IMG/VR virus record: IMGVR_UViG_3300028886_000066
Coordinates: 32,001-96,000 of that record
Length of the DNA: 64,000 nt
Direction: 5' to 3' (one strand)
Origin: a virus
Lineage: Duplodnaviria; Caudoviricetes
Made by a program: the position numbers and the translations under genes. This document shows, one piece after another, positions 4,916 through 38,971 of this stretch (position 1 is the first letter of the stretch; every line of letters starts with the position of its first letter). The notes under the pieces were generated by a model. That model had not been told where the DNA came from and searched no databases. It was given only the letters and a program-made list of their open reading frames with translations.

Positions 4916-5761
4916 TTATGAGTTGAAGAACGACATCGCTTCGGTTGAAGCCTTCTGCTTGTTGACCTTTATGTAGCGTTCGGTCATGGAAAGCGATTGG
5001 TGTCCCATATACTGAGAAATCTCTGGAACTGGAACACCCTTTGATGCAAGGATTGAGGCGAACGAACGGCGAGCCGTATGTTGGCCAACTAATTCGTACT
5101 TCTCCTTGGTAATCATTGAGCCGTGGTAATAGAGCGTGACCAAATCGTCGATTCCGCACTTCTTGCACACTTCCTTTAGTATGCGGTTGGTCGTTGTGCG
5201 CGAATACTCCTTTGAGGGCTTGTGTTTGAACAAGTCCTTGATGCGGTAGTGTTCGGGAATGACGGCGAGCGTGTGAGTCTTCCGTGAGACGTAAGAGAGC
5301 AGTCCATCCTGAATGTTCTCGTAGTCCAAATCGGAGACGTCGTTTCCTCTTGCACCACAATAGCACTCGATGAGGAAAAGGTTGAGGACGTCGCGCGTGA
5401 TGTCGTTCTTCTTTTCGTGTGGCAGAGCCTGATAGTAGGCGTCGATGCGGTGAACCTCTTCTTCGGTGAGGGCGATGTTCTGCTGTGGCACTTTCTTGAC
5501 TCGGAGAATTTTGGCGAACTTCATAGTAGGTAGTTCGACTTCGTCGGACACCATGTTCAGAAAGCTCTTGACGATGGCGCAATAGGTAAATGCGCTGTTT
5601 GGCGTGACAGTCTTGGTGAGGTAGGACACGAAATCGGTGAGATTGATGGCCGTGAGGTCGCACCAGTTGACTTCTTCTTTCCCGATTGCAGCCCGCATAT
5701 ACCTTACGAGAAATTCGTAATTGGGATAGCGGTGAATGAACTCTTTTTCAAATTTTTCCAT
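4916..5761 (-). CDS. Tyrosine recombinase without arm-binding domain (281 aa)
   Basis: Catalytic R (CGARGND), K (SRKT), HxxR (HTARR), H (MGH), Y (TERY). Confidence 0.92.
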   Translation of the reverse strand: MEKFEKEFIHRYPNYEFLVRYMRAAIGKEEVNWCDLTAINLTDFVSYLTKTVTPNSAFTYCAIVKSFLNMVSDEVELPTMKFAKILRVKKVPQQNIALTEEEVHRIDAYYQALPHEKKNDITRDVLNLFLIECYCGARGNDVSDLDYENIQDGLLSYVSRKTHTLAVIPEHYRIKDLFKHKPSKEYSRTTTNRILKEVCKKCGIDDLVTLYYHGSMITKEKYELVGQHTARRSFASILASKGVPVPEISQYMGHQSLSMTERYIKVNKQKASTEAMSFFNS

Positions 5762-5931
5762 ATCATTTCAGTTTTAAATTAGACATAAAAAGGAGCGACA
5801 CCGCAAGCTGATGCGATGCCGCCTTACACTCAAAAAACTCTTGATTATGAGCCTCGCGGCTGATAAGCGTCCCGACTCTGGGTTGGCAGGGCGGGGACTG
5901 AATGGAAGTCACGGCGGGCGTGACGTGATGG

Positions 5932-7629: not shown

Positions 7630-9330
7630 TTACGCCACCATTGACGTTTTCGGTGACGCGCACAGGATAACGTCGATGACATTGCATACTGAGCCGTCGG
7701 AGAGAGACACGACACCGTTCTCGATGCGCTCGATAGAAACGCCCGTGGAGAGGCTGACGAAATCGGCGAACCAGTCAGGGAGCGTACACTTGCGCTTGTC
7801 GGTAGGCAGCAGCAGCTCGGAAGAGACGTAGCAGAAGAGCCATCCCTTCAAGCGGATGAACGCCGTTCGCTTGCGCAGAGAAACTACTTTGACGATGCAG
7901 TCGTAGCCAGACGTCGTTTGCAGGATAGCAAAGTCGCCTGCATGGACACCATGAGAGTTGGCATCGACTTGCGGATTGTCTTCGTCAGAGACGTTCTCCA
8001 TGTCAATCTGCTGCATAGCGTCGAAGCGTCGGACGGTCTGAGCGTTACGCAGTTGTTCGCGTATCTCGGACTGAGAGCCGTACTTCAGGAACTCGCAGAC
8101 TTCACAGATAATGTCGGCCTTTGACTTGACTGAGCCGCCACCGAACATATCGCACATTCCAGATGAAGCGGATGACGCCTCGTTGTTGTAGAGGATGAAG
8201 ATACGCTTGAGCGTGTTCGTCTTCGCGCTGTTGATTGCATCGGCGAGAGCCTTGACGATAGGATTGGTGAAGTCGGCCACCGTCGATTCCTGATTGTCGA
8301 AAGCGAGATTGCTCTGACGAGAGAAACCAGACACAACCTGACCAAAGGCGATTCCCGTAGCGAGCGCGTGATAGCAGAGGTGGATGGCCTCGGCCATTTC
8401 GGACTCCAAAGAATACTCGTCGAGACTGATGTTCGTTGAAATCTCGGAGAGAGCCGTGATGATGTTCAGGCGCATACCAGCGAACTTGTTAATCTGACGG
8501 ACTGCATCGGGATTCTTCTGGAAAGCCTTGCCGATAAGCACGTTCTCCAGAATCTCCTTTGCCTTTGCGGAGATACGCTCGTTGCTTGCGCCGTCGAACA
8601 TTTCGGACATCTTCATCCCCGTGATGACCTTTGAGCGAATCAGCTCGGTCACGGCCTCGGATGAGGCTTTCTGACTGGAGTAGAACTCGGCGATAGTGTC
8701 AAAAGTATTGATAGAGCGGATGAGGCGTCGGAACGTCTCGTCGCTGACTTTCTTTCCCATTGACACGGCATCTTCGGTCTTGGACATTCCCTTTTTCTCG
8801 TCCTGATTGAACGCGGCGAAGATTTCCGTAGTGTACGGATATTCATCGTCGGCGACAAGGCAGATGCGCGGATGAGAGAATGACTTGACTTGCTCTTCGG
8901 TGAATCCGTACTTGTTGGGAAATTCTTGCAGGTAGCTAATGTACGCCTTGTCGGTGTCGTAGCGTGCTGCAATTATTCCCGCCATTGTACGTCCGTTACC
9001 AGAGAGGACGATTCCGTCCTTTGAGACGATTGGCGGTATTGTGAGAGCCTGCTCGTCGTAGTTGTCGGCTATTGAGCGCGTGACGGTCTGAGCGAACGTG
9101 TCGCGCTCGTAGTCTCGGTCGTTTACTGTCTGCCCGTTGGAATCGGTTGGGAATCCATCGGACTTGCAGAACGAGTCGAACGGATCGTGACTCGGAGTCA
9201 CTGCGCCCGATTCAGCCAGCAGGTAGCGTCCCTTGACTTTCAGTCCTGACGGCGTAGCGATTTTGTCGGCGTAGCCGTAGAGTTTCCGTGCATCGTCGAA
9301 GCGTTTGCGGATGAGTTGTAAGTTTTCCAT
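7630..9330 (-). CDS. ddrB-like ParB-superfamily domain protein
   Basis: PSHD...NDRDYERD...IA...PPIVSKDGIVLSGNGRTMA signature. Start at 9330 set by the conserved leader. Confidence 0.7.
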   Translation of the reverse strand: MENLQLIRKRFDDARKLYGYADKIATPSGLKVKGRYLLAESGAVTPSHDPFDSFCKSDGFPTDSNGQTVNDRDYERDTFAQTVTRSIADNYDEQALTIPPIVSKDGIVLSGNGRTMAGIIAARYDTDKAYISYLQEFPNKYGFTEEQVKSFSHPRICLVADDEYPYTTEIFAAFNQDEKKGMSKTEDAVSMGKKVSDETFRRLIRSINTFDTIAEFYSSQKASSEAVTELIRSKVITGMKMSEMFDGASNERISAKAKEILENVLIGKAFQKNPDAVRQINKFAGMRLNIITALSEISTNISLDEYSLESEMAEAIHLCYHALATGIAFGQVVSGFSRQSNLAFDNQESTVADFTNPIVKALADAINSAKTNTLKRIFILYNNEASSASSGMCDMFGGGSVKSKADIICEVCEFLKYGSQSEIREQLRNAQTVRRFDAMQQIDMENVSDEDNPQVDANSHGVHAGDFAILQTTSGYDCIVKVVSLRKRTAFIRLKGWLFCYVSSELLLPTDKRKCTLPDWFADFVSLSTGVSIERIENGVVSLSDGSVCNVIDVILCASPKTSMVA

Positions 9331-9396
9331 AATCTTGAGTTTTAGTGATACATAAATTGTACGCACAGGTTGTTTTCGCAGCCCATGCGCTTTGTG

Positions 9397-9579
9397 TCAG
9401 TCTTCAGTGAAGGCATTTGCTTTCTTGAATACTTCGTAGACTCTGTTCTTTGCCTCGGCAATAGCCTCGCAAGCATCTGCATCGGAAACGAGTTTTGTAG
9501 CGTCGTTGTAACGCTCCATTTCGTGCAGGAGTGCAGTCACGATGATGTCGATTTCCTGCTTGTTGAATGTCTCTTTCAT
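9397..9579 (-). CDS. Small hypothetical early protein
   Basis: ATTATG start; array orientation. Confidence 0.7.
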   Translation of the reverse strand: MKETFNKQEIDIIVTALLHEMERYNDATKLVSDADACEAIAEAKNRVYEVFKKANAFTED

Positions 9580-9625
9580 AATTCGTACTTAAATTGAGTT
9601 AAACTTTAGGTGAATTGTTTTTGTA

Positions 9626-9653
9626 GTTGCAAAAATATTCCTACTTTTGCAAC
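9626..9653. promoter_or_regulatory. Palindromic back-to-back -7 boxes
   Basis: GTTGCAAAA-N10-TTTTGCAAC contains TATTTTTG (minus) and TACTTTTG (plus). Confidence 0.55.
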
Positions 9654-9834
9654 CGAAAACCATGTGGGAGGTGTGCAAGACCTCCCTTTGGACTTACCGA
9701 AGCGAAACGGCCAACGTAACGCTGACGTGCCAAATTCTAATCGAAATGCTGAATCTCATAGAAACATGGTTTTTTATCCCTACACTTTACTATCTGGCTT
9801 TCGGGACTGCCAACCCGCTACACGTAACAGGATT

Positions 9835-10170
9835 TCATTCTGAGCGAACGAGACGTCTGACCTCGTCGTAGATTCGCAGCATATTGTCGATGGAGAGGAA
9901 GCAAGAACTGCCCCAGTACTCATCGTTGAACTGCGTGACGTAGAACTGGCTACCATTTCGGCTGTCCATGTAGGCAATACGGTCGGCAAGGATTGTCTCG
10001 CTTGTCTCGTTCTTGAAGTTGTGGAGAATCAGCGTATGACGAAACACGACATCCTGCCCGACTTCTGCTCCAAGCTGTTTCAGCAGCTCGATTGTCGATG
10101 TGGTTATTGACTCGCGGCACTCGGCTACGGCGTTGTTCACTCGCTTGTTTGTCTTAGTCTTGATTTTCAT
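9835..10170 (-). CDS. Small hypothetical early protein
   Basis: Conserved leader. Confidence 0.8.
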   Translation of the reverse strand: MKIKTKTNKRVNNAVAECRESITTSTIELLKQLGAEVGQDVVFRHTLILHNFKNETSETILADRIAYMDSRNGSQFYVTQFNDEYWGSSCFLSIDNMLRIYDEVRRLVRSE

Positions 10171-10237
10171 AATTGTTGAGTTTTAATTGGTTAGACATAA
10201 ATTCGTGAGCCGCCCCGCGATTGGGCGTTTGCGGCTC

Positions 10238-10528
10238 TTAGAGAGACTTGTACTCTTCGTACTTTGTCTTCATACCAACAGGAGCGTAGACGTTCAGGGC
10301 GTAGTCTACAAGTGCTTCCTGCAAGTCCAAGTCAAGTTCAACAAAGAAATAGTTCATTACCGCATGACTTCCGTAATCGTCGTAGATTTGGTTAAACTTC
10401 CCTCTTAGATGGTTTTTGAGGTAGTTTTTTCCAGTCTTCTCGCAGATGTAGTTGATAAACTCTTCTGGATTCGGGTAGTTGTAGCCGAATTTCACAAAGA
10501 TGTGAACAAGTAGCATTTCTTTTCTCAT
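10238..10528 (-). CDS. Small hypothetical early protein
   Basis: GTACGATTATG start. Confidence 0.8.
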   Translation of the reverse strand: MRKEMLLVHIFVKFGYNYPNPEEFINYICEKTGKNYLKNHLRGKFNQIYDDYGSHAVMNYFFVELDLDLQEALVDYALNVYAPVGMKTKYEEYKSL

Positions 10529-10543
10529 AATCGTACTTTTGTT

Positions 10544-10702
10544 TTAGAGTTCAACTTCCTGTTCGATGTCCATAAGATAGCCCTCTTTTCCGCAATTCGG
10601 GAAAGCACAAGTGCCGTAATCGACGTACATTTCCGTCATGCAGCTGTTGCAGATGACGTGGTCTGGGCAGAAGTAGTTCACGTTGGAAAAATCTTTAATC
10701 AT
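10544..10702 (-). CDS. 52-aa Cys-rich, Zn-ribbon-like protein (not in ORF track)
   Basis: MIKDFSNVNYFCPDHVICNSC...TCAFPNCGKEG; full conserved leader. Confidence 0.7.
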   Translation of the reverse strand: MIKDFSNVNYFCPDHVICNSCMTEMYVDYGTCAFPNCGKEGYLMDIEQEVEL

Positions 10703-10777
10703 AATTGTTTGAGTTTTAAATTGTTAGACATAAAATTCGTACTCGGCAGGCAACTTTCGTGTCTGCCAAGCAGGGAG

Positions 10778-11026
10778 TTACGCTTCGATTTCGTCAAGCG
10801 TCAGTTCGATGGAATACTTTTCGAGCGCTTCAAACATCCATTTCTTACGGCGGTACTGTAACTCTGCCCAAGACTCGCGGTAGTCTTCATCTTTGTCGAG
10901 ACGGTTGGCTTCGCGACGAGCAATCAGATACTCGTTGATGTCGTTCAGGACTTCAGCCGTTTCCTCGAAGTCGAAGTCACGGCACATCATCTCGTTCAGG
11001 AGTTCGATAAGTGTCTGTTGTTTCAT
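10778..11026 (-). CDS. Small acidic hypothetical protein
   Basis: ATGA-coupled to upstream gene. Confidence 0.75.
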   Translation of the reverse strand: MKQQTLIELLNEMMCRDFDFEETAEVLNDINEYLIARREANRLDKDEDYRESWAELQYRRKKWMFEALEKYSIELTLDEIEA

Positions 11027-11304
11027 TCTTCCTCAAAGTTTAGGTAGAGATTCTGTCTTGCCATGTCGCAGTAATCAATGGAGCCAATCGGCTCGCACAA
11101 TTCCCAATCCATTTCCTCGTCGGTATGAAATTCTGGATTGCGACCTGAATAGATGCAGTTCACGTTTGAGCAGTTGAAAGCGGAAAGTGAGCCGTCGCTG
11201 GTGTCGTAGACAAATTCGATGCCCTTGTTTCTGGCTTCGCAGAGGACTGCGTTAAGTTTCTTCAAAACTTCGAGATGTTCGGTAGTTAATGCTTTTTGTT
11301 TCAT
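11023..11304 (-). CDS. Small hypothetical early protein
   Basis: Conserved leader. Confidence 0.78.
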   Translation of the reverse strand: MKQKALTTEHLEVLKKLNAVLCEARNKGIEFVYDTSDGSLSAFNCSNVNCIYSGRNPEFHTDEEMDWELCEPIGSIDYCDMARQNLYLNFEEE

Positions 11305-11459
11305 AATCATTTGAGTTTTTAAGGGTTAGACAATAAAAAGTGACGGCAATGAGTTTTTCGCTCAAAGCCGACTGCAAGTTTAGCATCACAAAGTCCACAC
11401 CTGAAATGAGGTGGATAGCGTGGGAGCTGGCAAAGCTGATTGCCTGCGCCCTGAAGAGT

Positions 11460-11690
11460 TTAGATGTTTGCTGTGCAGAAGAAATCGTCGTTCACAAAAC
11501 AAACGCCCTCGTAGTTCCTGAAAATCACGCAGTCAGGAACAATTTCGTCGGCGTTTGCTAAATCGAAATAGGACGGCTCGTTGTAGTCCACGTCTAAGAC
11601 TTCTGCAAACGTTCCCTCATCGGCGAGCTGTTCGAGATAGTTACATTTCAGCTCAGTCAGTTGTTCTCTTGTTAATTCTGTTACGTCCAT
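11460..11690 (-). CDS. Small very acidic protein
   Basis: 18 D/E vs 3 K/R in 76 aa (manual count). Confidence 0.78.
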   Translation of the reverse strand: MDVTELTREQLTELKCNYLEQLADEGTFAEVLDVDYNEPSYFDLANADEIVPDCVIFRNYEGVCFVNDDFFCTANI

Positions 11691-11693
11691 AAT

Positions 11694-11900
11694 TCATTTC
11701 AGATTAAGTTCACATTTGATTCCTAATTTCATACAGAGAAGTTCGTACTCGGCAAAGTACTTGTGGTCACGCAGGATTCCCTCTTCGATTTCATGTCTGA
11801 GAGTTTTTTCTGCCCGTTTGATTGCATCGACGTTGTGGTTGTTCTGCCAGAAGTCCCACAGATATTCGCCGATTGCGATTCTGATTTTGTCTAAGGTCAT
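11694..11900 (-). CDS. Small hypothetical early protein
   Basis: Conserved leader before MTLDKIR. Confidence 0.75.
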   Translation of the reverse strand: MTLDKIRIAIGEYLWDFWQNNHNVDAIKRAEKTLRHEIEEGILRDHKYFAEYELLCMKLGIKCELNLK

Positions 11901-11951
11901 AATCGTTTGAGTTTTAAGGTGAAACAATAAGTGCAATCGGTAACGTTTCCG

Positions 11952-12201
11952 CTACCGAAAGCGTTTAGAACTGGACTTGCGACACGAACCATTCTTCGCG
12001 GAATCCGTACTTTGCGGCGACTTGATTCCCTGTGCGTTGAACATTGCGAATGTCTCGGCGGTGTAGTCGTAGTCATCATCACAGAGGAAGACGAGGCGGG
12101 AATGTGAAAAACCATCGAAATCGATGGGTTTAAAGCCGTACTTCTTGCAGGTTTTCAAGAGCTGCTTCGAGTATTTTTAGGCAGTTCAACTACTATTTCA
12201 T
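11952..12201 (-). pseudogene. Decayed fragment homologous to the ddrB-ParB-like protein
   Basis: KKYGF...FSHSRLVFLCDDDYDYTAETFAMFN vs NKYGF...FSHPRICLVADDEYPYTTEIFAAFN. Leader ATG followed by AAA TAG. Confidence 0.6.
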
Positions 12202-12213
12202 AGTCTCTGAGTT

Positions 12214-12447
12214 TTAATTGTTGATTAAATTCTTGATTTCTTCTTGTGTTTCGGTGACGCGGATTTCCTTATATTGGACTCCGTTGGTGTATTCGACTAA
12301 GGCGTAGGGATAGCCCCAATACTTCGCTTCGGATTCGTTTACATTCTCGAAACGGACGATGCAATCAGAGTTGAATGTCACCTTTGCGGTTTTCATCTCC
12401 TCTGTTGCGCCACTTGTAATAACTGTAAGGTCGATAAATTTTGCCAT
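12214..12447 (-). CDS. Small hypothetical early protein
   Basis: Partial leader. Confidence 0.78.
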   Translation of the reverse strand: MAKFIDLTVITSGATEEMKTAKVTFNSDCIVRFENVNESEAKYWGYPYALVEYTNGVQYKEIRVTETQEEIKNLINN

Positions 12448-12459
12448 AATCTTTGCGTT

Positions 12460-12690
12460 TTAATATTCAACTTTGATTCCACAACTTTTGATGATATTCT
12501 CCTGTGCTTTGTGTACGAAAGCAGGAGCGAAATAGCCATCAGTCCACATTATCAGTTCTCCGTGCATACCACGCTGATAACCGATGTAATGTGTTTCAAT
12601 AGCACCCGTGCTAAGCCCATGACTTTTTAGCACGTCAATAACTTTCTGTACGCACCCAGGGCGCGTTTCGAGATAATACAATTTGTTCAT
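12460..12690 (-). CDS. Small hypothetical early protein
   Basis: GATTATG start at MNKLYY. Confidence 0.75.
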   Translation of the reverse strand: MNKLYYLETRPGCVQKVIDVLKSHGLSTGAIETHYIGYQRGMHGELIMWTDGYFAPAFVHKAQENIIKSCGIKVEY

Positions 12691-12745
12691 AATCTTAATG
12701 TTTTGAAATGTATAGTAAGCCACGCCGAAACTAATCCGTGTGACT

Positions 12746-12889
12746 TTAGTGGGGTAAAGTAACGTAAAGTGGCCAGACAATCAGATTACGCTCGTTCTTT
12801 ACGTCTTTAACGTAATACGTTCCGTTGTAGCAGTGTTCGCAAGTCGAAATTCGTCTTGCAATACAATCTTTGCAGCATTTGTACTTCAT
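12746..12889 (-). CDS. 47-aa Cys-rich protein
   Basis: CCKDC...CEHC; ATGA-coupled. Confidence 0.6.
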   Translation of the reverse strand: MKYKCCKDCIARRISTCEHCYNGTYYVKDVKNERNLIVWPLYVTLPH

Positions 12890-13131
12890 AGTGCAGAAAA
12901 TTCCGTTGAAACATCTTTCCAGTCCGTAAACACCTTTGACACTTTGTCCCAATACTCTGTGCCGTTGTGTTTCCCCAGAGAAACCTCAATCGTGAAGAGG
13001 TGCATCGTCTTGAAATTTCCGTCATCGTAGATACGATAGGATTTTCCGTCCTTACCAGTCTTTCGCTCAATCTCTCTCGGAGCAAGCAGATAAGCCATTC
13101 TCTCAGCTTCGTTCTTGAAATTCTTTTTCAT
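12886..13131 (-). CDS. Small hypothetical early protein
   Basis: Conserved leader. Confidence 0.78.
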   Translation of the reverse strand: MKKNFKNEAERMAYLLAPREIERKTGKDGKSYRIYDDGNFKTMHLFTIEVSLGKHNGTEYWDKVSKVFTDWKDVSTEFSAL

Positions 13132-13197
13132 AATCTTTTGAGTTTAGTGAAACAATAAATTTGTACCTTTGCGGAAAACCGATTCCGCAAAAGTAGT

Positions 13198-13356
13198 TCA
13201 GGAGATTCTTTCGAGACGTTTGTTTGCGCCTATCCAGTGATGCAGGACGGATGACGGCGATAAGTCTGCACTGTCGAACTCGTAGGTTTTCACTTCGTCG
13301 GTGTGGTCGTGGTTTTTCGCGGACATGGGATTGTAGGTGAGTCTGTATTTGGACAT
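13198..13356 (-). CDS. 52-aa hypothetical protein (not in ORF track)
   Basis: MSKYRLTYNP...; fills the gap between two array genes. Confidence 0.6.
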   Translation of the reverse strand: MSKYRLTYNPMSAKNHDHTDEVKTYEFDSADLSPSSVLHHWIGANKRLERIS

Positions 13357-13360
13357 GGCC

Positions 13361-13573
13361 TTAGATATTTACGAAGTAGAGCCACGAATTAATCAGCGAA
13401 ATCTCGTCATCGTTGACTTTTTCAGAAAGTTCATCCAGAGTGAGGATGTCTGCCTCGTCATATCCGAAATTGGATGCAATGTTAGCGAGGTCGTACTTCT
13501 CTCTGTCGCTCATCTTTACCAACTCGTCACGATTGTAAGAGTCGGCGGAAAATAATAATGCGTAAGTTTTCAT
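13361..13573 (-). CDS. Small acidic hypothetical protein
   Basis: Conserved leader. Confidence 0.78.
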   Translation of the reverse strand: MKTYALLFSADSYNRDELVKMSDREKYDLANIASNFGYDEADILTLDELSEKVNDDEISLINSWLYFVNI

Positions 13574-13643
13574 AATTCTTTGAGTTTAATAAGTGAAACA
13601 TAAATTTGTAGAGTAGGGGAAACTAATCCCCAGACTCCGACGG

Positions 13644-13913
13644 CTACATCTTTTCGGGATTCCAGATGTCATCCTTTGTAGCCCATTTCTCAATCTTCTC
13701 GCCACAAACCATTGCGTGAACAAGGAAAAGAAGATTGCGCGTACTTGTAGAACTGCATTTCATCATGCAGAGTCCGACACCTCGTCTCAGGAAATACCAG
13801 AAATCAGGCTCATTTTCAGTTCCGCAATTATTGACGGTTGCGGTAATGAACACGTTTTTCTTTGCAGCGCACTTGATAGCGTTTGAAACCAAATTGTCAA
13901 TACAATACTTCAT
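13644..13913 (-). CDS. Small hypothetical early protein
   Basis: Conserved leader. Confidence 0.78.
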   Translation of the reverse strand: MKYCIDNLVSNAIKCAAKKNVFITATVNNCGTENEPDFWYFLRRGVGLCMMKCSSTSTRNLLFLVHAMVCGEKIEKWATKDDIWNPEKM

Positions 13914-13970
13914 AATCTTTAGAGTTTAGTGAAACATTTGCGATGTTTGGGACATTTCTGCCCCAAACTT

Positions 13971-14204
13971 CTACGCAGCAATCTTTTCGCGCACCTTAGC
14001 GACTTTCTCAGGTGTATCGAACCAGCACCGACCGTCAATGCAGTAATACTGCAAATCATCTTGTGGAACGTGATAGACTTCAATCACTTTCTCGTCAGTT
14101 ACTTTCTCGGCAAACTGCTTAACTTCTTCTTCTGTCAAATCGTAGGTGTAAACAAGGCAGTTGTCGCCATTCTCGAAATTCACGAATAAATTCTTTACTT
14201 CCAT
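13971..14204 (-). CDS. Small hypothetical early protein
   Basis: Leader places start at MEVKNLF. Confidence 0.78.
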   Translation of the reverse strand: MEVKNLFVNFENGDNCLVYTYDLTEEEVKQFAEKVTDEKVIEVYHVPQDDLQYYCIDGRCWFDTPEKVAKVREKIAA

Positions 14205-14271
14205 AATCTTTGAGTTTTTAAGTGAGACATAAAATTCGTACTTCGCAGGACATTCCAGCCCTGCAAAGCGG

Positions 14272-14610
14272 TTAGATACAAAAGTCCGATTCATACCCGC
14301 CTTTGTTGTCAGGCCACATCGGATAATTTGTAAGGATGAATCCAAGATGATAGAACGGGAACTTGAACTTTGCCACATTTGAGCCATCATCAAGCAATCC
14401 CAAAAGCGGCTTGACCATTTCCGTAGCCTTTTCGTCAATGTACTTTTCAGAATACCACCATGCCAGAGGCTCGTTTGCAAACATTGCACGCATTATATTC
14501 TTGATTGATTCTTTTATCTCATCAAGATTGTCACTGCTGGAAATGTTCAGAGAATGAGACTCTTGCGTGTGACAAGTGGTCAGGTACAGATAAAATGCTT
14601 TCTTTTCCAT
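14272..14610 (-). CDS. Small hypothetical early protein
   Basis: Conserved leader. Confidence 0.78.
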   Translation of the reverse strand: MEKKAFYLYLTTCHTQESHSLNISSSDNLDEIKESIKNIMRAMFANEPLAWWYSEKYIDEKATEMVKPLLGLLDDGSNVAKFKFPFYHLGFILTNYPMWPDNKGGYESDFCI

Positions 14611-14676
14611 AATTTTTGAGTTTTAAAGTGAATACTAATTTTGTACTTCGCAGGAAAATTGATTCCTGCAAAGTGT

Positions 14677-14877
14677 TTACTTTCCGTAATTTGGATTCGG
14701 CACTCGCGTTTCAGTTATCCGCACTCTTGCACCTGCCTCACGATAGCCAGCAACGTCACGGCGAACGTCGGAATACTTTTCTTCTGGCTTAAAGTAAGAA
14801 CATTCGATTTCCCATCCGTAGCCGTAGTTTGTCCAGATATTCCATCCGTACAGATACTTGTTTTCTTTCTTTTTCAT
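14677..14877 (-). CDS. Small hypothetical early protein
   Basis: Conserved leader; NYGYGWE motif. Confidence 0.78.
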   Translation of the reverse strand: MKKKENKYLYGWNIWTNYGYGWEIECSYFKPEEKYSDVRRDVAGYREAGARVRITETRVPNPNYGK

Positions 14878-14941
14878 AATTCATAAAGTTTTAAAAGTGA
14901 AACATAAGCGACTCAGGGAAGAATTAACCTCCCCGAATCTT

Positions 14942-15343
14942 TCAATGAAGAGTCAAGCCTAAAAGTTCGTATGTCGTCATACCCATTTCGCGGATAGGCT
15001 CTGCGAGAATGGCATGATTCAGATGAGGACATTTTGTTGAGCCGATTTTTTCATCCTCTGCAATGAACTTTCCGACTTTGAGAAGAACCCATCTCTGATT
15101 TGTTTCGGGATAGACTCTTTTCATCGTGCAGAGCAATTCCGTAACGTCAACATAAACATCGAATTTAGAATACTCGTAAGCCAGATAAGTCTCACGGTCA
15201 ACTTGTTTGCCGATTTCTTTTTCGTACTCGTCAAAAAGAGCTTGATGTTTCTTCCAGCTGATTTTCCCGTTTTTGTCAAGAATACTTTTGCTGAAAATCT
15301 CGCCTTCCAGACTCTTGATTGTTGAATAATCATACTTTGCCAT
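14942..15343 (-). CDS. Hypothetical early protein
   Basis: Conserved leader. Confidence 0.8.
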   Translation of the reverse strand: MAKYDYSTIKSLEGEIFSKSILDKNGKISWKKHQALFDEYEKEIGKQVDRETYLAYEYSKFDVYVDVTELLCTMKRVYPETNQRWVLLKVGKFIAEDEKIGSTKCPHLNHAILAEPIREMGMTTYELLGLTLH

Positions 15344-15405
15344 AATTCAATGAGTTTTAAGTGAAACAATAGAATCAGTGGGCTAAACTGATAGCCCAGA
15401 GATTT

Positions 15406-15666
15406 TTAGAACCATCCAAGAAATCCCAAATAACGTGTGGACTTCCTTTTCTGACTTGCGTTTACTTTCGGGTTGATTGCGCCGTGAGTGTAGCCGTAAG
15501 TTTCTTTGCGGTAGATTGCATCCATTACAGCATAGACTTCTTTGTAGTCTTCAACTTTGCTTAGGTCGATTGCGTTACGCTTGAATAATTTGTTCAGATT
15601 GCACTCAACCGTTTCCCAAGAGACAAACTGCTCTTTGCACATCTCCAAAAATTTCTCTTTTTCCAT
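15406..15666 (-). CDS. Small hypothetical early protein
   Basis: Conserved leader. Confidence 0.78.
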   Translation of the reverse strand: MEKEKFLEMCKEQFVSWETVECNLNKLFKRNAIDLSKVEDYKEVYAVMDAIYRKETYGYTHGAINPKVNASQKRKSTRYLGFLGWF

Positions 15667-15733
15667 AATTCAATGAGTTTAGATTGTTAGACAAATTTTG
15701 AACAATCGGGCAAAACTAATCGCCCGAAAGTTT

Positions 15734-16075
15734 TCAGCCGAAACGGTTCAGGTCGTAGGAAACAGAAACGAGACATTTGTTCAAATCTGTTACTACTTCC
15801 TCGAACTCGAATGTCTTCTTGACAAATTGCTGGTCGTACTTCATGATGATTTCCTTTGCAAGCGCAAAACTCTCTCTCTCGATATTCCCGTCTCTATGTC
15901 CAGAGTAAAGAGTGAATTTCTCATGCCAGATGTCTCCGTTGTTTGAAAGGAAAGTTTTCTCATCCCTTTCTGCAATACAAATCACACCATAGAAACCGTG
16001 AAAGAAGAAATAGTTCTTTCCAGTGAAGAGAATGTTGACTTCTCCACCAAATAATTCTGATTTAAAAAATTCCAT
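15734..16075 (-). CDS. Small hypothetical early protein
   Basis: Conserved leader. Confidence 0.78.
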   Translation of the reverse strand: MEFFKSELFGGEVNILFTGKNYFFFHGFYGVICIAERDEKTFLSNNGDIWHEKFTLYSGHRDGNIERESFALAKEIIMKYDQQFVKKTFEFEEVVTDLNKCLVSVSYDLNRFG

Positions 16076-16148
16076 AATTCATAAAGTTTTAAAGATTAAA
16101 CATAAATTAGCCACCAGAGCGAAAATTAATCCGCTCCGATGAAAAGAT

Positions 16149-16448
16149 TCAGATGATTTCTTTCTTTATCATTTCAGCCAAAGCCAAAAGCGTAAAGCCA
16201 GCGTTTCCGTCGTAGGCCAAATCCTTGCGGCAGACGACATTGTGATAGAAAGCGTTTTCGAAAACATCTTCATTGCAACTCAGGCTTGCGCCGACGGCGG
16301 TACGGTACGGGTCAATCATGTAAGCGATGAGGTTTGCGCGTTTTCCTAAGATTCGGATGACTTCCTGTGTACGATTGCGGACGATTTCGATTGCATCATC
16401 AATCTGCTTGTCGGTGTAAAGGCGACGCTTTTCGATTTTCTTTTTCAT
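16149..16448 (-). CDS. Small hypothetical early protein
   Basis: Leader places start at MKKKIEK. Confidence 0.78.
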   Translation of the reverse strand: MKKKIEKRRLYTDKQIDDAIEIVRNRTQEVIRILGKRANLIAYMIDPYRTAVGASLSCNEDVFENAFYHNVVCRKDLAYDGNAGFTLLALAEMIKKEII

Positions 16449-16526
16449 AATTCTGTGAGTTTTTAAAGTGAAACATAAATCGTAGGCACGCCAACTTCTC
16501 AGCCAGCGCACCCGAAACATTATCCA

Positions 16527-16730
16527 TTATGAAACTACAATTCCAAACATTTCAATTCTCCGATTGATTTCCGCTTTTGCTTCTTTCAGAGTATCAGTAA
16601 TCATCGGAATCATATAACCACAGGAATAGATTTCGTACTGCTTTGCAGGAATCCATTTCGTACCGTCAAATTCAACTACTCTTTTTCGCTGAATTTCATA
16701 ACCTTTGTAGGTGTAAGTCTTTGTAATCAT
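16527..16730 (-). CDS. Small hypothetical early protein
   Basis: Conserved leader. Confidence 0.78.
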   Translation of the reverse strand: MITKTYTYKGYEIQRKRVVEFDGTKWIPAKQYEIYSCGYMIPMITDTLKEAKAEINRRIEMFGIVVS

Positions 16731-16798
16731 AATCTTTTGAGTTTTAAGTGAATAATTCGCTCCCCGAAAATATTTCTCGTACTTTCGGGAAAATTGTG

Positions 16799-17248
16799 TT
16801 ACGCAGCTTCTTTTTCCTGTTCGCGCTCGTATTCAAGTTCGGAAATCCACTCGCCGAAATTGTAAGTGAGTCCCCAAGTTCCGAAAGCACGGAAAAACCA
16901 ATCAAACGCCCACGTCTGGAACTTCTTCAAATCTTCGTCGGAAATAGTTTCGTCGTCAATGCTTTTTATCACATCGTCAAACGTTCCCCACGGCTGAATC
17001 TCAGAACCGATAAACTCAGGACAATATTCCCAGTCTTCACGAATATTGCAGAAATTCCCGCACATCTTCGTATCTTTTCTGTGAACGTACTTTTTCATCG
17101 ACTCCAAAGTTTCAAACGCGGAGTTGGCAGCGTAATCTTCGGTTTCGGATTCCCAAGAACCGTAATCCATTCCGTAATTTTCGATTGTCTCCTTGAAGAG
17201 ATTCAGGAACGTTTCGTAAACGTCATCGTAATTCAAAAAATCTTTCAT
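16799..17248 (-). CDS. Acidic, aromatic-rich early protein
   Basis: About 35 D/E vs 14 K/R in 149 aa; conserved leader. Confidence 0.8.
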   Translation of the reverse strand: MKDFLNYDDVYETFLNLFKETIENYGMDYGSWESETEDYAANSAFETLESMKKYVHRKDTKMCGNFCNIREDWEYCPEFIGSEIQPWGTFDDVIKSIDDETISDEDLKKFQTWAFDWFFRAFGTWGLTYNFGEWISELEYEREQEKEAA

Positions 17249-17319
17249 AATGGTTGAGTTTTTAAAAGTGAATAAATAATTATCGTACTTTGGCGCAGGA
17301 CTGACCGCGCCAAAATAAA

Positions 17320-17649
17320 TCAGGATACTTCGATAATTTCGTCAATGCGTCCGCAAACAACATGACGCAGTGCAGTTTTATCAAAAGCATAATACTCAAA
17401 CCAACTTCCGTATTGGTTAATAATGTACCTTTTCAGGAAATCTTTGAAACCAAATAGCCAACCTTGCAGCGGAATAGAATGCTTTGAAAAGGTGTTGTGA
17501 AAAACTTTTTCGGAAATCCAGTTCTTTTCTTCGCGTGAAAGTTTCTCGCCATTCATGCACTTTTGTTTGAGTTGATAAACTTTGCTTTCTTTCAATTCTT
17601 CGAGCGCAGGAACTTCCCACGTTACGAACTTGTAAGCCATTTCTTTCAT
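17320..17649 (-). CDS. Small hypothetical early protein
   Basis: Conserved leader. Confidence 0.8.
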   Translation of the reverse strand: MKEMAYKFVTWEVPALEELKESKVYQLKQKCMNGEKLSREEKNWISEKVFHNTFSKHSIPLQGWLFGFKDFLKRYIINQYGSWFEYYAFDKTALRHVVCGRIDEIIEVS

Positions 17650-17715
17650 AATTATTTTGAGTTTTAGGGGTTAATTTTCGTACTTCCCGCGAAATCTCTC
17701 TCACGGGAAATAAAT

Positions 17716-17862
17716 TCAGCGCAAAGACGGATAACGTTTCATGATACGCTCGCACTCCCTGGATAAAGTCAGATACAACATAGAACTTTTTTCAAGATTC
17801 GCCATGATGTTACGATTCGCGTTCAACGAATTGCTCGCAACCAATTTGTCTAATTTGCTCAT
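17716..17862 (-). CDS. 48-aa hypothetical protein (not in ORF track)
   Basis: MSKLDKLVASN...; starts 3 nt after the upstream stop. Confidence 0.6.
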   Translation of the reverse strand: MSKLDKLVASNSLNANRNIMANLEKSSMLYLTLSRECERIMKRYPSLR

Positions 17863-17865
17863 AAC

Positions 17866-18084
17866 TCACGCAACTTTTGATTTCATAAGTTTGTCGTACA
17901 AAGTTTCTGGAGTATCTTTTTCCTCCCAGAACATTTCAAGACAGGCGCAAATCTCATTCTTCGTAGCGTTTGGGAAAACATCACGAACAACTTCCGACAT
18001 CTTTTTCGTACTCTCAGGATTAACCCAAGCAAGAAGAGGATCATCAAAAATCCTCTCCAGTTCCTTTCTTAATTCTTCTTTCAT
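17866..18084 (-). CDS. Small hypothetical early protein
   Basis: Conserved leader. Confidence 0.78.
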   Translation of the reverse strand: MKEELRKELERIFDDPLLAWVNPESTKKMSEVVRDVFPNATKNEICACLEMFWEEKDTPETLYDKLMKSKVA

Positions 18085-18148
18085 AATTATAAGAGTTTTA
18101 AGTGAATAAAAAATCGTACTATCGGTAAGATTTACCCTACCGATAATT

Positions 18149-18289
18149 TTAGAAACACAAACCTATATTCTGCTGAGAATTGAAAAACTTTTCAGCTTTC
18201 TCAAGCATTTTCGTACTACCACAACCGAAATTGTAATACAGTCGATAAACTCTTTCGAGCTGTTCGGAAATCTGTTTGAACGTTTTCAT
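18149..18289 (-). CDS. 46-aa hypothetical protein
   Basis: AAAATTATG start at MKTFKQ. Confidence 0.65.
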   Translation of the reverse strand: MKTFKQISEQLERVYRLYYNFGCGSTKMLEKAEKFFNSQQNIGLCF

Positions 18290-18351
18290 AATTTTCTCCT
18301 TTCTGAAATAAAATTCGTACTTCGTGCCAGCTCTCACCAGCACAAAGCAAA

Positions 18352-18795
18352 TTACCAGACTTTTATCGGCTTTCTTTTCGGATTCATCAACGCGCCACCT
18401 TTCAAGAAAGAATTGCAGGCGCGTTTCAGAGATTTCCCAGAATAGAATTGCCAAAGCTGACCGTCAATTTCATCGCCGTTTTCATTTATCGGCATGAAAT
18501 CGGAATTGTAACGGCCATCGGGTGAAACCTGAGTTTCATAATGCTCAAATTCATTTTTCCCGTCGTAATTCTCGTAGCCGATTGTTCCGACATAAAGTTT
18601 TCTTTCAGTGTCGAAAACTTCAGCGGTGAAATACGGATGACCAAAAGACAAATCTGAAAAATCGACATAAAATTTCGGATTCGGATTTTCTTTTGTCGCT
18701 CTCATCGTCGTCCCGTGACTTTCGTCTTTAATGTACGGGCAAAACTGCAAACCGAGATTCGCAGAAGTCTTTTCGCAAAATTCTTTGAAGTTCAT
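18352..18795 (-). CDS. Hypothetical early protein
   Basis: Conserved leader. Confidence 0.8.
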   Translation of the reverse strand: MNFKEFCEKTSANLGLQFCPYIKDESHGTTMRATKENPNPKFYVDFSDLSFGHPYFTAEVFDTERKLYVGTIGYENYDGKNEFEHYETQVSPDGRYNSDFMPINENGDEIDGQLWQFYSGKSLKRACNSFLKGGALMNPKRKPIKVW

Positions 18796-18867
18796 AATCT
18801 TTGAGTTTTAATTGTGAATAATTATCGTACTTCCAAAATATTTTTCGTACTTTGGAAGTGAAAAGTA

Positions 18868-18963
18868 CTATCCGAAAAACAGGATAACAAAGTAAGTCAG
18901 GACAAGCCAGCAGATGCAGCAGATGAAACCGCCACAGAAATCTAAAATCTCTTTTCTATTCAT
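18868..18963 (-). CDS. 31-aa single-TM peptide (not in ORF track)
   Basis: MNRKEILDFCGGFICCICWLVLTYFVILFFG. Confidence 0.55.
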   Translation of the reverse strand: MNRKEILDFCGGFICCICWLVLTYFVILFFG

Positions 18964-19030
18964 AATTTTCGTACTTTGAAATAATTATCGTACTCTGGAA
19001 GTAATTTTCGTACTCCCAGAATTTTCGTAC

Positions 19031-19240
19031 TTACTGATACGCTGCAATCAATTTCCAATCGTTACGGTTTTTCACGTAAACCTGAATCAGAAAAGCGTTC
19101 ACGTCGCGTTTCGCTTCTGCAAAAATCTTGCGGGCGTGTACCTGAGCATCGGCGTGACACTCAAACATTTCACGATGAAAATTAAAACCAGCGGTCAGAT
19201 TCGTGTTCTGAAAATGAATCTCGAACAAATAACTTTTCAT
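19031..19240 (-). CDS. Small hypothetical early protein
   Basis: Leader places start at MKSYLF. Confidence 0.78.
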   Translation of the reverse strand: MKSYLFEIHFQNTNLTAGFNFHREMFECHADAQVHARKIFAEAKRDVNAFLIQVYVKNRNDWKLIAAYQ

Positions 19241-19286
19241 AATCTTTTGAGTTTTTAAGTAAGACAATTAGCTTTCGCCACCTGAA

Positions 19287-19592
19287 TTAACAGGCAGCGA
19301 AATAAAGTTTTCGGTAAGTCTTGAAATCAATTCCGTTTTCTTTCAGGAACTCACAACTCCACCGAAATTCTTTCATAAGAGATTGCAAACGCTCGAAGTC
19401 GCAAAGGAAATCATAAAACTTTTGAAAATCCCTGGACTTTTCAATTCCTAAATTCTGAATCATTGAAAATTCAGCTTCCAAGTCACGCGAAAGAATAATC
19501 AAATATCTTTGTTCGCGCGAATAGTTCTTCACGAAATATTGTGCGGCCTGACTCCGCTGGGAATCAAGCCGTTTTCTATCTTCTGACATCAT
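19287..19592 (-). CDS. Small hypothetical early protein
   Basis: Leader embedded in the end of the upstream ORF. Confidence 0.75.
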   Translation of the reverse strand: MMSEDRKRLDSQRSQAAQYFVKNYSREQRYLIILSRDLEAEFSMIQNLGIEKSRDFQKFYDFLCDFERLQSLMKEFRWSCEFLKENGIDFKTYRKLYFAAC

Positions 19593-19717
19593 AACGCAAG
19601 AGTTTTGATTGTTTCAATACTTTTTGCGCCGCAAATTGCGCACATCATAACGTCACCGAACTTTGCGGAAATCTTTTCAGAAAGTTCCGCGAGCTTGTAA
19701 ATTAAATCGTCGTTCAT
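19589..19717 (-). CDS. 42-aa hypothetical protein (not in ORF track)
   Basis: MNDDLIYK...CAICG; full leader. Confidence 0.65.
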   Translation of the reverse strand: MNDDLIYKLAELSEKISAKFGDVMMCAICGAKSIETIKTLAL

Positions 19718-19747
19718 AATCTTTTGAGTTTTATTGAGTGAATAAAT

Positions 19748-20020
19748 TTAATCTCTCTCAAAGTGCTTTGTTGCAACAAATTCCGTAATTGCAGAAATCG
19801 GATAAACGAATTTTATTCCGTCATCATTCCGAGAAAAATTGCGCCCGACCGCAATCTGTGTGCGGACGATTGAATAAACCTTTTCCAAATCAGAATCTAA
19901 AATGGAATTGTGCCACTCGATTTCAATCTGGAAATCATTTACTTTCTTGATTGATACTCTGTAAAGAGTTACATTCCCGTCGATAGTGTCGATGGAAATA
20001 CGATAAACTTTTGTTTTCAT
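19748..20020 (-). CDS. Small hypothetical early protein
   Basis: First gene of the micro-gene array. Confidence 0.75.
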   Translation of the reverse strand: MKTKVYRISIDTIDGNVTLYRVSIKKVNDFQIEIEWHNSILDSDLEKVYSIVRTQIAVGRNFSRNDDGIKFVYPISAITEFVATKHFERD

Positions 20021-20339
20021 AATTGATAATGTTTAAAATTTATTGAGCTTTAATACGGAATCGAACCGCCGAGAAATTTCTAAAAGAAATCTTCAAACCA
20101 GAATAAAACAAAAAGGAAATGACAAAACGGAAATCTTTTAACCCGTCACTTTGTTTTTCAAAATCTTTTCGGAAAACTTCCGCTTTGTCACTCCAAAAAA
20201 TCTTTTCACGTTTCAACAAAAATGCAAACGCCAAAAAGATTTGCAACGAAAACTCAATTATGAATTTTTCTTTTGCCGTTTTTCGTCGCTTTTTTCGTTT
20301 TCCGCAAATATCACTTTTTAGAATCGGTTGCAAATAAAA

Positions 20340-22658: not shown

Positions 22659-22910
22659 CAAAGTTACATAATAATAAGGTACGATATTTCCCGAAGATAG
22701 ACAAAAAGAATATAAAGTAACAACTAACAACCACAAAACAAAATAACAACAACAACAAAAAGAAAGTAAAGAAATTTGATAACAAAATAAGAGTATTTGG
22801 GGTGGAGAAAGGAGGAGACAAAAGCCTTATTTTCAGGTATTTACGTCAATTTTCGAGGTGCAAAAGTAACATTATATATAATAAAGTAATAAATCTTTTT
22901 TGCAAAAGTA
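22659..22910 (-). promoter_or_regulatory. Three leftward -7 boxes heading the early arm
   Basis: TAACTTTG at 22659-22666; TACTTTTG at 22861-22868 and 22903-22910. Confidence 0.55.
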
Positions 22911-28945: not shown

Positions 28946-29053
28946 TGTTGTAAGATTTAGCCAGAATGAGTTAGTCCCCATTCTGGCTACAAATGTACGA
29001 TTTTTTTCTGAATTAACCAAACTTGCAATATGATTATTAAAGAAAATTAAGAA

Positions 29054-33586: not shown

Positions 33587-33613
33587 AGTAACAATTCTTT
33601 TGTTTACATGTGA

Positions 33614-33713
33614 CAAAAGTATTGATAAATAGCTCTCTTGCAATGTGTTTTCAAATAATTCTTCATTTTTTTCTTTAAACATATTGTATGAAAACCTCAA
33701 TTATATACATTTG
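33614..33713. promoter_or_regulatory. Divergent late promoters (terL and scaffold)
   Basis: TACTTTTG on minus at 33614-33621; box at 33638; TACATTTG on plus at 33706-33713. Confidence 0.7.
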
Positions 33714-35289: not shown

Positions 35290-35305
35290 AGAAAGGAGTT
35301 AGATT

Positions 35306-38945: not shown

Positions 38946-38971
38946 GGGAAGGATTTTTAATTTTGTGAGGA

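Follow-up and report, generated by a model that had tools for sequence, protein, structure and literature searches.

The subject of this report is an array of small open reading frames (ORFs) in a 64,000-nucleotide (nt) stretch of a Caudoviricetes virus genome, bases 32001-96000 of the 104,673-bp IMG/VR phage record IMGVR_UViG_3300028886_000066 (hereafter, the window). In this array the ORFs are joined by short intergenic modules, each consisting of a hairpin and a multi-part leader that ends on the start codon of the next gene. We conclude that these modules are probably standard intercistronic expression joints that double as recombination joints, acting much as the PeSL elements of T4-type phages do, without a host promoter, and not in the manner of an integron. 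Comparison with close relatives shows that genes have been swapped at these modules.

The array is the hyper-variable non-structural arm in a clade of ~100-kb Bacteroidales-type siphophages. We assign the host to the Bacteroidales type because the portal protein is ~40% identical to portals of Bacteroides and Phocaeicola phages and the operon starts carry perfect Bacteroidota -7 boxes (TAnnTTTG). The structural arm encodes a tape measure protein of 2570 amino acids (aa), and no tRNA was found. Coordinates are those of the window unless marked "genome"; G000 denotes the phage under study, and G001, G005 and the L-numbered loci denote contigs or genomes of its relatives. Module statistics were pooled over 11 phages, with 165 modules for the leader and 135 for hairpin folding.

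Leader, hairpin and start-site context

All array genes lie on the minus strand, and the ATG coordinates quoted here are minus-strand positions. The initial annotation of this stretch, made from the sequence by eye of a model, had described about 24 leader-bearing ORFs in an array of about 35 genes, and our count agrees: when every ORF was listed with its upstream sequence, the multi-part leader was found on 23-25 of the ~33-35 ORFs, with ATGs at 9330, 10170, 10702, 11304, 11900, 12447, 13131, 13573, 13913, 14204, 14610, 14877, 15343, 15666, 16075, 16448, 16730, 17248, 17649, 18084, 18795, 19240 and 19717. The window contains 21 copies of the core motif AAACTC-N3-6-ATTATG; all but one of these are minus-strand copies lying between 9328 and 19731 (20, with a chance expectation of 0.02), and the whole 104.7-kb genome holds 20 minus-strand copies versus a single plus-strand copy. 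The leader-bearing gaps are nearly constant in length (57-78 nt, mostly 62-71) because the hairpin begins 0-8 nt past the previous stop codon. The leaderless ORFs of the array lie at -4 to +15 nt from the preceding ORF, which they overlap or abut, and are therefore translationally coupled to it.

The leader follows the consensus (G)TACGAAWTT - TGTTTCAC/TGTCTAAC/TATTCAC - (T)TAAAACTC - N4-6 - ATT - ATG. When base frequencies are anchored on the ATG, the 23 modules of G000 have A at -3 in 100%, at -6 in 83% and at -12 to -14 in 96-100%, and G is absent from -20 to -10 and scarce from -23 to -6. The other genes of this phage follow the same trend more weakly at -3 (A in 53%) and at -12 to -14 (67% at -13), with A at -6 not raised (26%). 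Over the 165 pooled modules, A reaches 80% at -3, ~53% at -6 and 81-84% at -12 and -13, T reaches 89% at -1 and 79% at -2, and G is at 4% or less from -20 to -11. Measurements in Flavobacterium johnsoniae, a species with Shine-Dalgarno-blind ribosomes, identified A at -3, -6, -12 and -13 together with low structure as features that favor initiation (Baez et al. 2019, PMC6847099). Because the A positions of the modules match these published determinants, the 3' half of the leader can be regarded as an extreme form of the host start-site context, and the modules display the features of the Bacteroidota Kozak-like initiation region: the A positions, an AUG start, low structure and no Shine-Dalgarno sequence. 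The earlier description of the array as a set of standardised expression units is thus well founded.

The 5' part of the leader contains the GTACGA box. GTACGA is over-represented (56 versus 25 expected), and 22 of the 27 minus-strand genome sites of GTAC[GA]AWWW fall inside the array. The element in question, AGTACGAWWATT, is discrete and of one orientation; it is seen at the feet of hairpins and within their loops, immediately ahead of some ATGs (those at 9579 and 10528 and that of the tail-tube gene) and as a four-fold tandem.

Between the upstream stop codon and nearly every leader lies a hairpin, which begins 0-8 nt past the stop. The leader described in the initial annotation is real; the hairpin, which is half of the unit, had been missed. 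The stems are 12-14 bp long, rich in G.U pairs and different in every module; their outer pairs are conserved as (T)ACUUU...AAAGUA, with the GTA of GTACGA forming the 3' foot, and their loops are of three kinds (the hexaloop UYRRUU, GNRA tetraloops and CGARAAA). Across the 135 modules folded, the sense strand of the hairpin region folds at -17.6 kcal/mol, compared with -14.0 for the antisense strand and -10.2 for shuffled sequences, the sense strand is the more stable one in 106/135 (Wilcoxon p=4e-14), and G.U pairs number 293 in sense versus 162 in antisense. Such a strand bias is unexpected for a symmetrical DNA site, and we therefore take the structure to be selected on the message strand; the hairpin most likely acts in RNA. 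Compensatory changes are seen in the module before 17248, whose stem is GGCGCGG/CTGCGCC in G000 and GCAGCGG/CTGCTGC in L100. The hairpins bear little resemblance to terminators. At convergent junctions the phage has bidirectional terminators of its own, built of an A-tract, a GC stem and a T-tract; the module stems have the reverse polarity, CUUU...AAAG followed by CGAA, and by sequence alone no U-run abuts the stem. No Rfam family matched the modules at the gathering threshold or at E<=1.

Some candidate features of the module were tried and discarded. An upstream mini-ORF starting at the ATG of TATGTTTCAC has unconserved frames and stops, and its ATG is missing in many modules. Kissing between loop and leader (UUAGU with ACUAA) would involve 4-5 bp at most and is absent in G001. 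The modules are also not mobile multi-copy elements of a MITE-like kind, as each hairpin is present once per genome, in a colinear place.

A separate observation concerns start sites elsewhere in the genome. Shine-Dalgarno-like GGAGG/AAGGAG sequences stand 6-12 nt before the capsid gene (35286-35305) and about eight other genes, those of the left arm including genome 2488-3225, 5030-5626, 27177 and 30385, so that two start-site styles, the GGAGG type versus the G-free array leaders, are found in one phage of a Shine-Dalgarno-blind host.

Gene exchange among related phages

Relatives were sought in several ways. Megablast of the array against GenBank phages gave no match, nor did searches of IMG/VR with the single ParB-like protein or with the exact 24-base leader pattern; a leader 20-mer hit seven IMG/VR loci, among which only G001 (108 kb) is a relative. 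Alignment of the FtsK protein yielded ten contigs with FtsK 50-67% identical, and all ten carry, upstream of FtsK, a small-gene array of the same module design; more distant FtsK loci have no such modules. The flanking FtsK, recombinase and primase genes are syntenic and the arrays share few genes: G000 and G001 have one array gene in common, and G000 and G005 have 8 of ~35 and 45. Gene order is mostly colinear, with rank inversions in 15/55 phage pairs, and none of the arrays compared (11 phages) contains paralogues.

Closer relatives came from a metagenome scan with the ParB-like protein. In L100 the ParB-like gene is 97.5% identical to that of G000 in protein and 94.6% in DNA, FtsK is 87% identical in protein, and 4 of the 29 ORFs of the 10-kb array have a homologue in the G000 array. 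Eight G000 hairpins or modules recur in L100, each once and in colinear position. The module before 14877 is identical throughout, beginning at the stop-codon T and ending at ATG+2 (the ATG plus two bases), and its flanking ORFs in the two phages gave no BLASTP hit at E<=10; the modules before 13573, 15666 and 17649 are likewise conserved between unrelated ORFs. Altogether, 17 of the 18 informative homology boundaries lie in a module or <=6 nt from its edge, in three clusters: at the stop codon, at the 3' foot of the hairpin and at the ATG.

Whole-cassette differences are seen in the slot before 10170, which has four arrangements (G000, L108, L101 and L103) with junctions at ...ATT|ATG or within TTTAAACTC; inserted cassettes of 203 aa and 84 aa are found there in L101 and L108, with repeated leader ends. 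L101 also has an extra 95-aa gene, with the ParB-like gene's 36-nt leader repeated on each side of it. L100 and the more distant G005 share ORFs absent from G000, and L023 has a pair of adjacent L100 cassettes in swapped order. The initial annotation had suggested aligning related phages to see where genes are gained and lost; in these close relatives the gene content has turned over massively, the order is not invariant, and the breakpoints fall at or in the modules at base resolution.

The array proteins themselves are largely without known relatives. No PHROG family with a function was found for 27 of the 28 array proteins scanned (along with two neighbouring proteins), two proteins match families of unknown function and one match is marginal; none of the seven array proteins scanned against Pfam gave a match (0/7). 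That these genes are candidates for host takeover or anti-defence is a reasonable guess.

Mechanism and competing explanations

In the arrangement that we favor, every ORF or coupled ORF pair is joined to the next by one standard module of ~60-75 nt. The canonical promoters are few and lie outside the modules, and the arm would therefore be read as a few long messages, starting from host-type promoters at 22659-22910 (three) and, internally, at 9630-9637. The hairpin would close off the upstream cistron, providing insulation and stability of the 3' end, and together with the adjoining AGUACGAWWAUU element it may form a processing or protein-binding site. The G-free, U/A-rich leader would leave the next start site unstructured, and its A at -3, -6 and -11 to -14 would suit Shine-Dalgarno-blind ribosomes, giving efficient translation of any cassette. 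At the level of DNA, the universal leader provides homology between any two cassettes and the slot-specific stem homology between alleles of a slot, so that ORFs are replaced, inserted or deleted exactly from ATG to stop with the modules persisting. We think it most likely that the phage's Sak-type annealing protein, and not the recombinase nearby, carries out the exchange. The gene for this single-strand annealing protein of the Sak family lies outside the window at genome 17416-18024 (+) (E=1e-42; locus L109), and proteins of this type can recombine short homologies.

Several points weigh against this proposal. The 5' boxes found across the clade (AGTACGAWWATT and TGTYTMAC) are not explained by start-site context alone and possibly have an unrecognised promoter or protein-binding role; the near-invariant, lineage-specific hexaloop of G005 hints at a dedicated binding partner; and the transcription start sites, the read-through of hairpins and any processing are all features that we infer. 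Where the breakpoints fall reflects selection in part, since viable recombinants need intergenic junctions under any mechanism and the modules are the only intergenic DNA here. Finally, intact modules of which both neighbour ORFs have changed are not simply predicted by crossovers within modules.

One alternative is a strict terminator-promoter element of the PeSL type, in which the hairpin would terminate transcription and the leader would be a non-consensus promoter used by a phage-retargeted host RNA polymerase, each gene forming its own transcription unit. A hairpin followed by a conserved A/T-rich block is indeed the PeSL layout, and a U-rich run lies 2-4 nt after some hairpins. AGTACGAWWATT and TGTYTMAC, conserved clade-wide, are placed where they would suit a promoter with a 5' untranslated region (5'UTR) of 15-23 nt (the modal 5'UTR in Bacteroides is 23 nt), and TATGTTTC departs from TAnnTTTG at its last base only. 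We nonetheless judge this alternative unlikely. TAnnTTTG itself is present in 10/165 modules, just 6%, in keeping with the initial remark that the leader is not a host promoter; the spacing from GTACGA to AAAACTC is variable (11 to 19 nt); the strongest positional signal is anchored on the ATG and not between the boxes; and the stem polarity is wrong for intrinsic terminators. Neither G000 nor G001 was found to encode a sigma factor with a Sigma70_r2 domain or an RNA polymerase of the T7 type, and the giant proteins contain no DxDGD-type motif. The canonical promoters that the phage has elsewhere are of perfect consensus, and at two of them (9637 and 22666) the -7 box precedes the leader boxes (TTCAC, AAAA..., ATT-ATG), which fall in the 5'UTR. 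Other promoter candidates were rejected as well: a scan for the sigma-70 type found 30 sites versus 26 expected, which is no excess, and for a consensus irrelevant to a Bacteroidota host; a fixed -35/-10 geometry from GTACGA to TAAAAC is at odds with the 11-19 nt spacing; and an antisense promoter (the reverse complement of GTACAAATTTA, TAAATTTG) gives a good -7 box in just three modules, without conservation in G001 or L022.

The modules could also be sites at which a trans-acting factor controls the whole arm, exchange being a by-product: a stoperator-like repressor on AGTACGAWWATT DNA, a RegA-like translational repressor on the leader, or an endoribonuclease cutting at the hairpin base in the manner of RNase III on the early message of T7. 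The form of AGTACGAWWATT, discrete, asymmetric and of one orientation, at hairpin bases, in loops, before ATGs and four times in tandem at 18961-19033, speaks for such a factor and resembles in form and orientation the stoperators of mycobacteriophage L5, asymmetric intergenic repressor sites that block elongation. CGA-AUU also fits what we take to be an RNase E site of the RN-WUU type. The loops point the same way, hardly varying inside a lineage and changing from one lineage to the next (UUAGUU in G005, where it accounts for 16/26, and in G000; AGCAAU, common in G001; no common loop in L021-L026), as would be expected for a co-evolving phage protein. We give this explanation a small chance: no repressor or other candidate factor was identified, the hairpin persists in distant relatives while its loop is not conserved, and a good GTACGA box is found in only about half of the modules. 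It is, moreover, compatible with expression joints and not exclusive of them.

The initial annotation had likened the modules to integron cassettes and had placed a tyrosine recombinase with a weaker copy of the leader on the same arm. The gene is there (281 aa, 4916-5761, minus strand) and does carry a weaker module. On an integron-like explanation, the hairpins would be attC-like and this Xer-like recombinase would move leader-ORF-hairpin cassettes. The likeness consists of promoterless small genes in one orientation, imperfect hairpins with variable centres between them and a tyrosine recombinase at one end. The recombinase adjoins FtsK in 10/10 module-bearing relatives, compared with 0-1 of 70 more distant FtsK loci; over long range a still-recognisable hairpin travels with its upstream gene (7/45 versus 0/26, Fisher p=0.03), which is the topology of an integron cassette; some junctions lie at the 3' base of the hairpin (17649, 17248, 12690); and the TGTCTAAC variant of the leader fits RYYYAAC. 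We nevertheless consider this explanation very improbable. The recombinase scores 25 bits against the NCBIfam integron integrase model (cut-off 265) and its best match is XerA (56 bits, cut-off 220), which makes it a generic Xer-like enzyme beside an FtsK motor, the usual pair for dimer resolution. No IntI-type integrase, no R''/R' boxes and no single crossover point were found: the stem bases are (T)ACTTT/AAAGTA instead of a complementary RYYYAAC/GTTRRRY pair, the RYYYAAC-like box is external to the hairpin and reads CAC in most copies, and junctions occur at three places. The message strand folds better, and modules outlast cassettes, whole modules being kept while both neighbour ORFs change. 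As for the co-occurrence of recombinase and modules, it is that of one clade and therefore counts as a single evolutionary event. Of the earlier proposals, then, shuffling at the modules stands and a recombinase or integron-type site does not; the PeSL analogy is apt for the mode of action and the integron analogy fails.

A bolder version of exchange would make the modules a fixed, addressable scaffold, with hairpin-marked slots and a universal leader, in which ORFs are swapped from ATG to stop by a dedicated mechanism and not by ordinary homologous recombination. Such a mechanism may be hairpin-guided, or may use a clade-specific Xer-like recombinase/FtsK pair or a loop-binding protein. We regard the scaffold as improbable. 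If true, it would be a new gene-cassette system in Bacteroidota phages, with joints that outlive genes.

Feature map and relation to known systems

Table 1. Array, modules, promoters and neighbouring genes of G000 (window coordinates), with their state in relatives
Feature	Position	Strand	Basis or comparison
Xer-like tyrosine recombinase, 281 aa	4916..5761	-	Profile scores
Weaker module (hairpin and TTTTTATGTCTAATTTAAAACTGAAATGAT) before recombinase gene	5759..5830	-	
FtsK/SpoIIIE-like motor, 414 aa	6228..7472	-	
ddrB-ParB-domain protein, 566 aa, last large gene of the arm	7630..9330	-	Query for close relatives
Array of ~33-35 small ORFs (31-149 aa) with intergenic modules	9328..20020	-	ORF map, gaps
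Module before ParB-like gene (ATG 9330)	9328..9399	-	L100 homology from TGTATCAC box, 22 nt before ATG; hairpin differs
Canonical host-type promoter box TATTTTTG (9630-9637)	9577..9660	-	5'UTR with TTCAC, TTTAACTC and GTACGAATT directly before ATG 9579
Module before ATG 10170	10168..10240	-	Four arrangements of slot among close relatives
Module before ATG 10702	10700..10780	-	
Module before ATG 11304	11302..11380	-	L100 identical up to ATG, then different gene (3-gene indel)
Module before ATG 11900, GAAA tetraloop	11898..11954	-	
Decayed cassette: degenerate leader, then ATG AAA TAG TAG (2-codon ORF, 12201)	12193..12230	-	Nonsense codons and frame change
Module before ATG 12690	12688..12760	-	Hairpin conserved in L100 and L103; leader and ORFs differ
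Module before ATG 13131	13129..13200	-	
Module before ATG 13573, hairpin GGGGA-ttagtt-TCCCC	13567..13638	-	94% identical to L100 7001-7072; flanking ORFs unrelated
Module before ATG 13913, GAAA tetraloop	13911..13973	-	
Module before ATG 14204	14202..14274	-	
Module before ATG 14610	14608..14679	-	
Complete module before ATG 14877: stop TGA, hairpin GATTCGGGGAGG-ttaatt-CTTCCCTGAGTC, leader GCTTATGTTTCACTTTTAAAACTTTATGAATT, ATG	14873..14944	-	100% identical over 72 nt to L100 5989-6060; both flanking ORFs unrelated
Module before ATG 15343	15341..15408	-	
Module before ATG 15666	15662..15738	-	87% in L100; flanking ORFs unrelated
Module before ATG 16075	16073..16151	-	
Module before ATG 16448, G.U-rich hairpin GGGTGCGCTGGCT-gaga-AGTTGGCGTGCCT	16444..16538	-	92% identical in L100; stem recognisable in G005 too; downstream ORFs differ
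Module before ATG 16730, hairpin loop contains GTACGAGAAAT	16728..16801	-	L100: downstream gene 93.5% aa, upstream gene replaced
Module before ATG 17248	17246..17322	-	L100 hairpin kept by compensatory changes
Module before ATG 17649	17647..17718	-	L100 hairpin 92-94% over 34-40 nt; leader and both ORFs differ
Module before ATG 18084	18082..18151	-	
Module before ATG 18795, GTACGA in loop and at 3' base of hairpin	18793..18870	-	Leader identical to L100 693-733, in other context
Four tandem GTACGAWAATT, spacing 17-20 nt, one in hairpin loop	18961..19033	-	Last abuts ATG of 31-aa ORF
Module before ATG 19240	19238..19305	-	
Three tandem consensus Bacteroidota -7 boxes (TACTTTTG, TACTTTTG, TAACTTTG)	22659..22910	-	Point into leftward arm; third box then TTATTCAC-TAAAAA...AAT-ATG

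Some features in and around the array deserve a record of their own. After the dead start of the decayed cassette, the region 11952-12230 (-) holds an ORF in another frame that ends just before the next hairpin. The ORF headed by the four tandem GTACGAWAATT copies (18963..18868, minus strand) encodes a hydrophobic protein of 31 aa. Upstream of the first array gene, at ~20045-20075 (-), lies an element resembling a tRNA T-arm that recurs in two other phages (G005, at ~5230 of L098, and G001, at ~91080), its sequences in the three phages being GGCGGTTCGATTCCG, GAGTTCGATTCTC and GTAGGTTCGATCCCTAC; ARAGORN found no tRNA, and the element may be what is left of an attP in a tRNA gene, or else a tRNA-like RNA end. 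A non-coding stretch of 961 nt (20330-21290, minus strand) separates the 359-aa ORF from the first array gene; it has only 5.7% A on the minus strand and is packed with the repeats CCTGCCCT, CTGCCCTGCTGCCCT and ATATCAGGGCGG. The equivalent stretch of G005 is different, T-rich and built on the repeats TTAGATTTTA and GAGGCTGCTGC; the G000 stretch is a candidate replication origin or structured non-coding RNA.

Among promoter-like sequences, two -7 boxes form a palindromic pair at 9620-9665 (plus strand, TACTTTTGCAACC; minus strand, TATTTTTGCAAC), inside the 255-nt gap that precedes gene 9579; L020 and L101 conserve this region, which is possibly an internal divergent promoter or operator. Consensus -7 boxes also stand 6-9 nt before the ATG at 28990-28997 (-), 33706-33713 (+) and 38958-38965 (+) (TACATTTGtagccagaATG, TACATTTGtagcagaaaATG and TAATTTTGtgaggaATG), a distance that suggests leaderless or nearly leaderless messages at these three operon starts. 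Elsewhere in the window, the large terminase subunit (30866-33700, minus strand) is unusually long at 944 aa, with an N-terminal match to DnaC/AAA-like proteins, and an HNH endonuclease gene (27872-29020) lies just downstream of the portal gene. Outside it, a Mom-like DNA-modification protein is encoded at genome 29365-30045 (+) (locus L109), and a DnaB-like helicase and a GIY-YIG (T5orf172) protein are found near the Sak and Mom-like genes.

The modules have partial counterparts in other phages. The early operon of T7 has three tandem host promoters and intercistronic RNase III hairpins at five sites, which leave a protective 3' stem on each message. The likeness lies in tandem strong host promoters that head an early arm and in a polycistronic message punctuated by non-terminator hairpins; T7, however, has five sites versus ~25 here, its stems are longer and irregular and it lacks a common leader, and processing in the present phage is only proposed. 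Under the modular theory (Botstein, 1980), lambdoid phages reportedly have short conserved linkers at gene boundaries that serve as homology for exchanging non-homologous genes; the modules differ from such linkers in being a defined multi-part expression signal, present ~25 times per genome and clade-wide.

In mode of action the nearest counterparts are the PeSLs of T4-type phages (Arbiol et al. 2010, PMC2839356; Comeau et al. 2014, PMC4122927) and the SAS/ESAS elements discussed below. As with PeSLs, short units of a stem-loop and A/T-rich sequence lie between small ORFans in one orientation in a hyper-variable arm, and relatives (here G000 versus L100, L101, L103 and L108) show indels and replacements at the units. 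In both systems a dedicated recombinase is unnecessary, since homologous recombination by the phage itself can bring about the exchange. A T4 PeSL, on the other hand, combines a consensus host sigma-70 promoter with a proven terminator (PMC2839356, PMC4122927). Here the host promoter consensus is absent and, by sequence, the stem has the wrong polarity to terminate transcription; conservation is highest in a translation start context anchored on the ATG, and the host belongs to another phylum, without Shine-Dalgarno recognition. The SAS and ESAS elements of cluster K mycobacteriophages (Pope et al. 2011, PMC3203893) are likewise asymmetric conserved sequences a few nt before the ATG, confined to the non-structural arm and of one orientation; they often follow an inverted repeat, are conserved across subclusters before unrelated genes and are suspected of a role in translation (PMC3203893). 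SAS has a Shine-Dalgarno core, whereas the leader here is G-free and A-positioned (G at 4% or less, -20 to -11). The arms of ESAS are conserved in sequence without compensatory support, whereas the stems here are unique to their slots, co-vary and fold on the sense strand; and a role in cassette exchange was not shown for SAS (PMC3203893). Since both the host consensus promoter and the Shine-Dalgarno core are missing, the modules belong to neither the PeSL nor the SAS family. Our literature search turned up no account of such modules from phages of Bacteroides or Prevotella, and the form they take for a host without Shine-Dalgarno recognition is new relative to the literature searched.

To our knowledge, it has not been explained how Bacteroidota phages express many foreign small genes. 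The present clade offers a natural and highly standardised solution to expression without Shine-Dalgarno sequences, a hairpin insulator followed by a G-free, A-positioned leader, and the use of the module as a portable expression part for Bacteroides engineering is directly testable. The idea of modular shuffling, developed for T4-type phages, is extended here to another phylum and to another type of signal, with junctions resolved to the base by close relatives and with an unusual retention of joints while genes are replaced. Together, the eleven arrays, with several hundred ORFans, form a catalogue of rapidly exchanged early genes that are candidates for host takeover and counter-defence.

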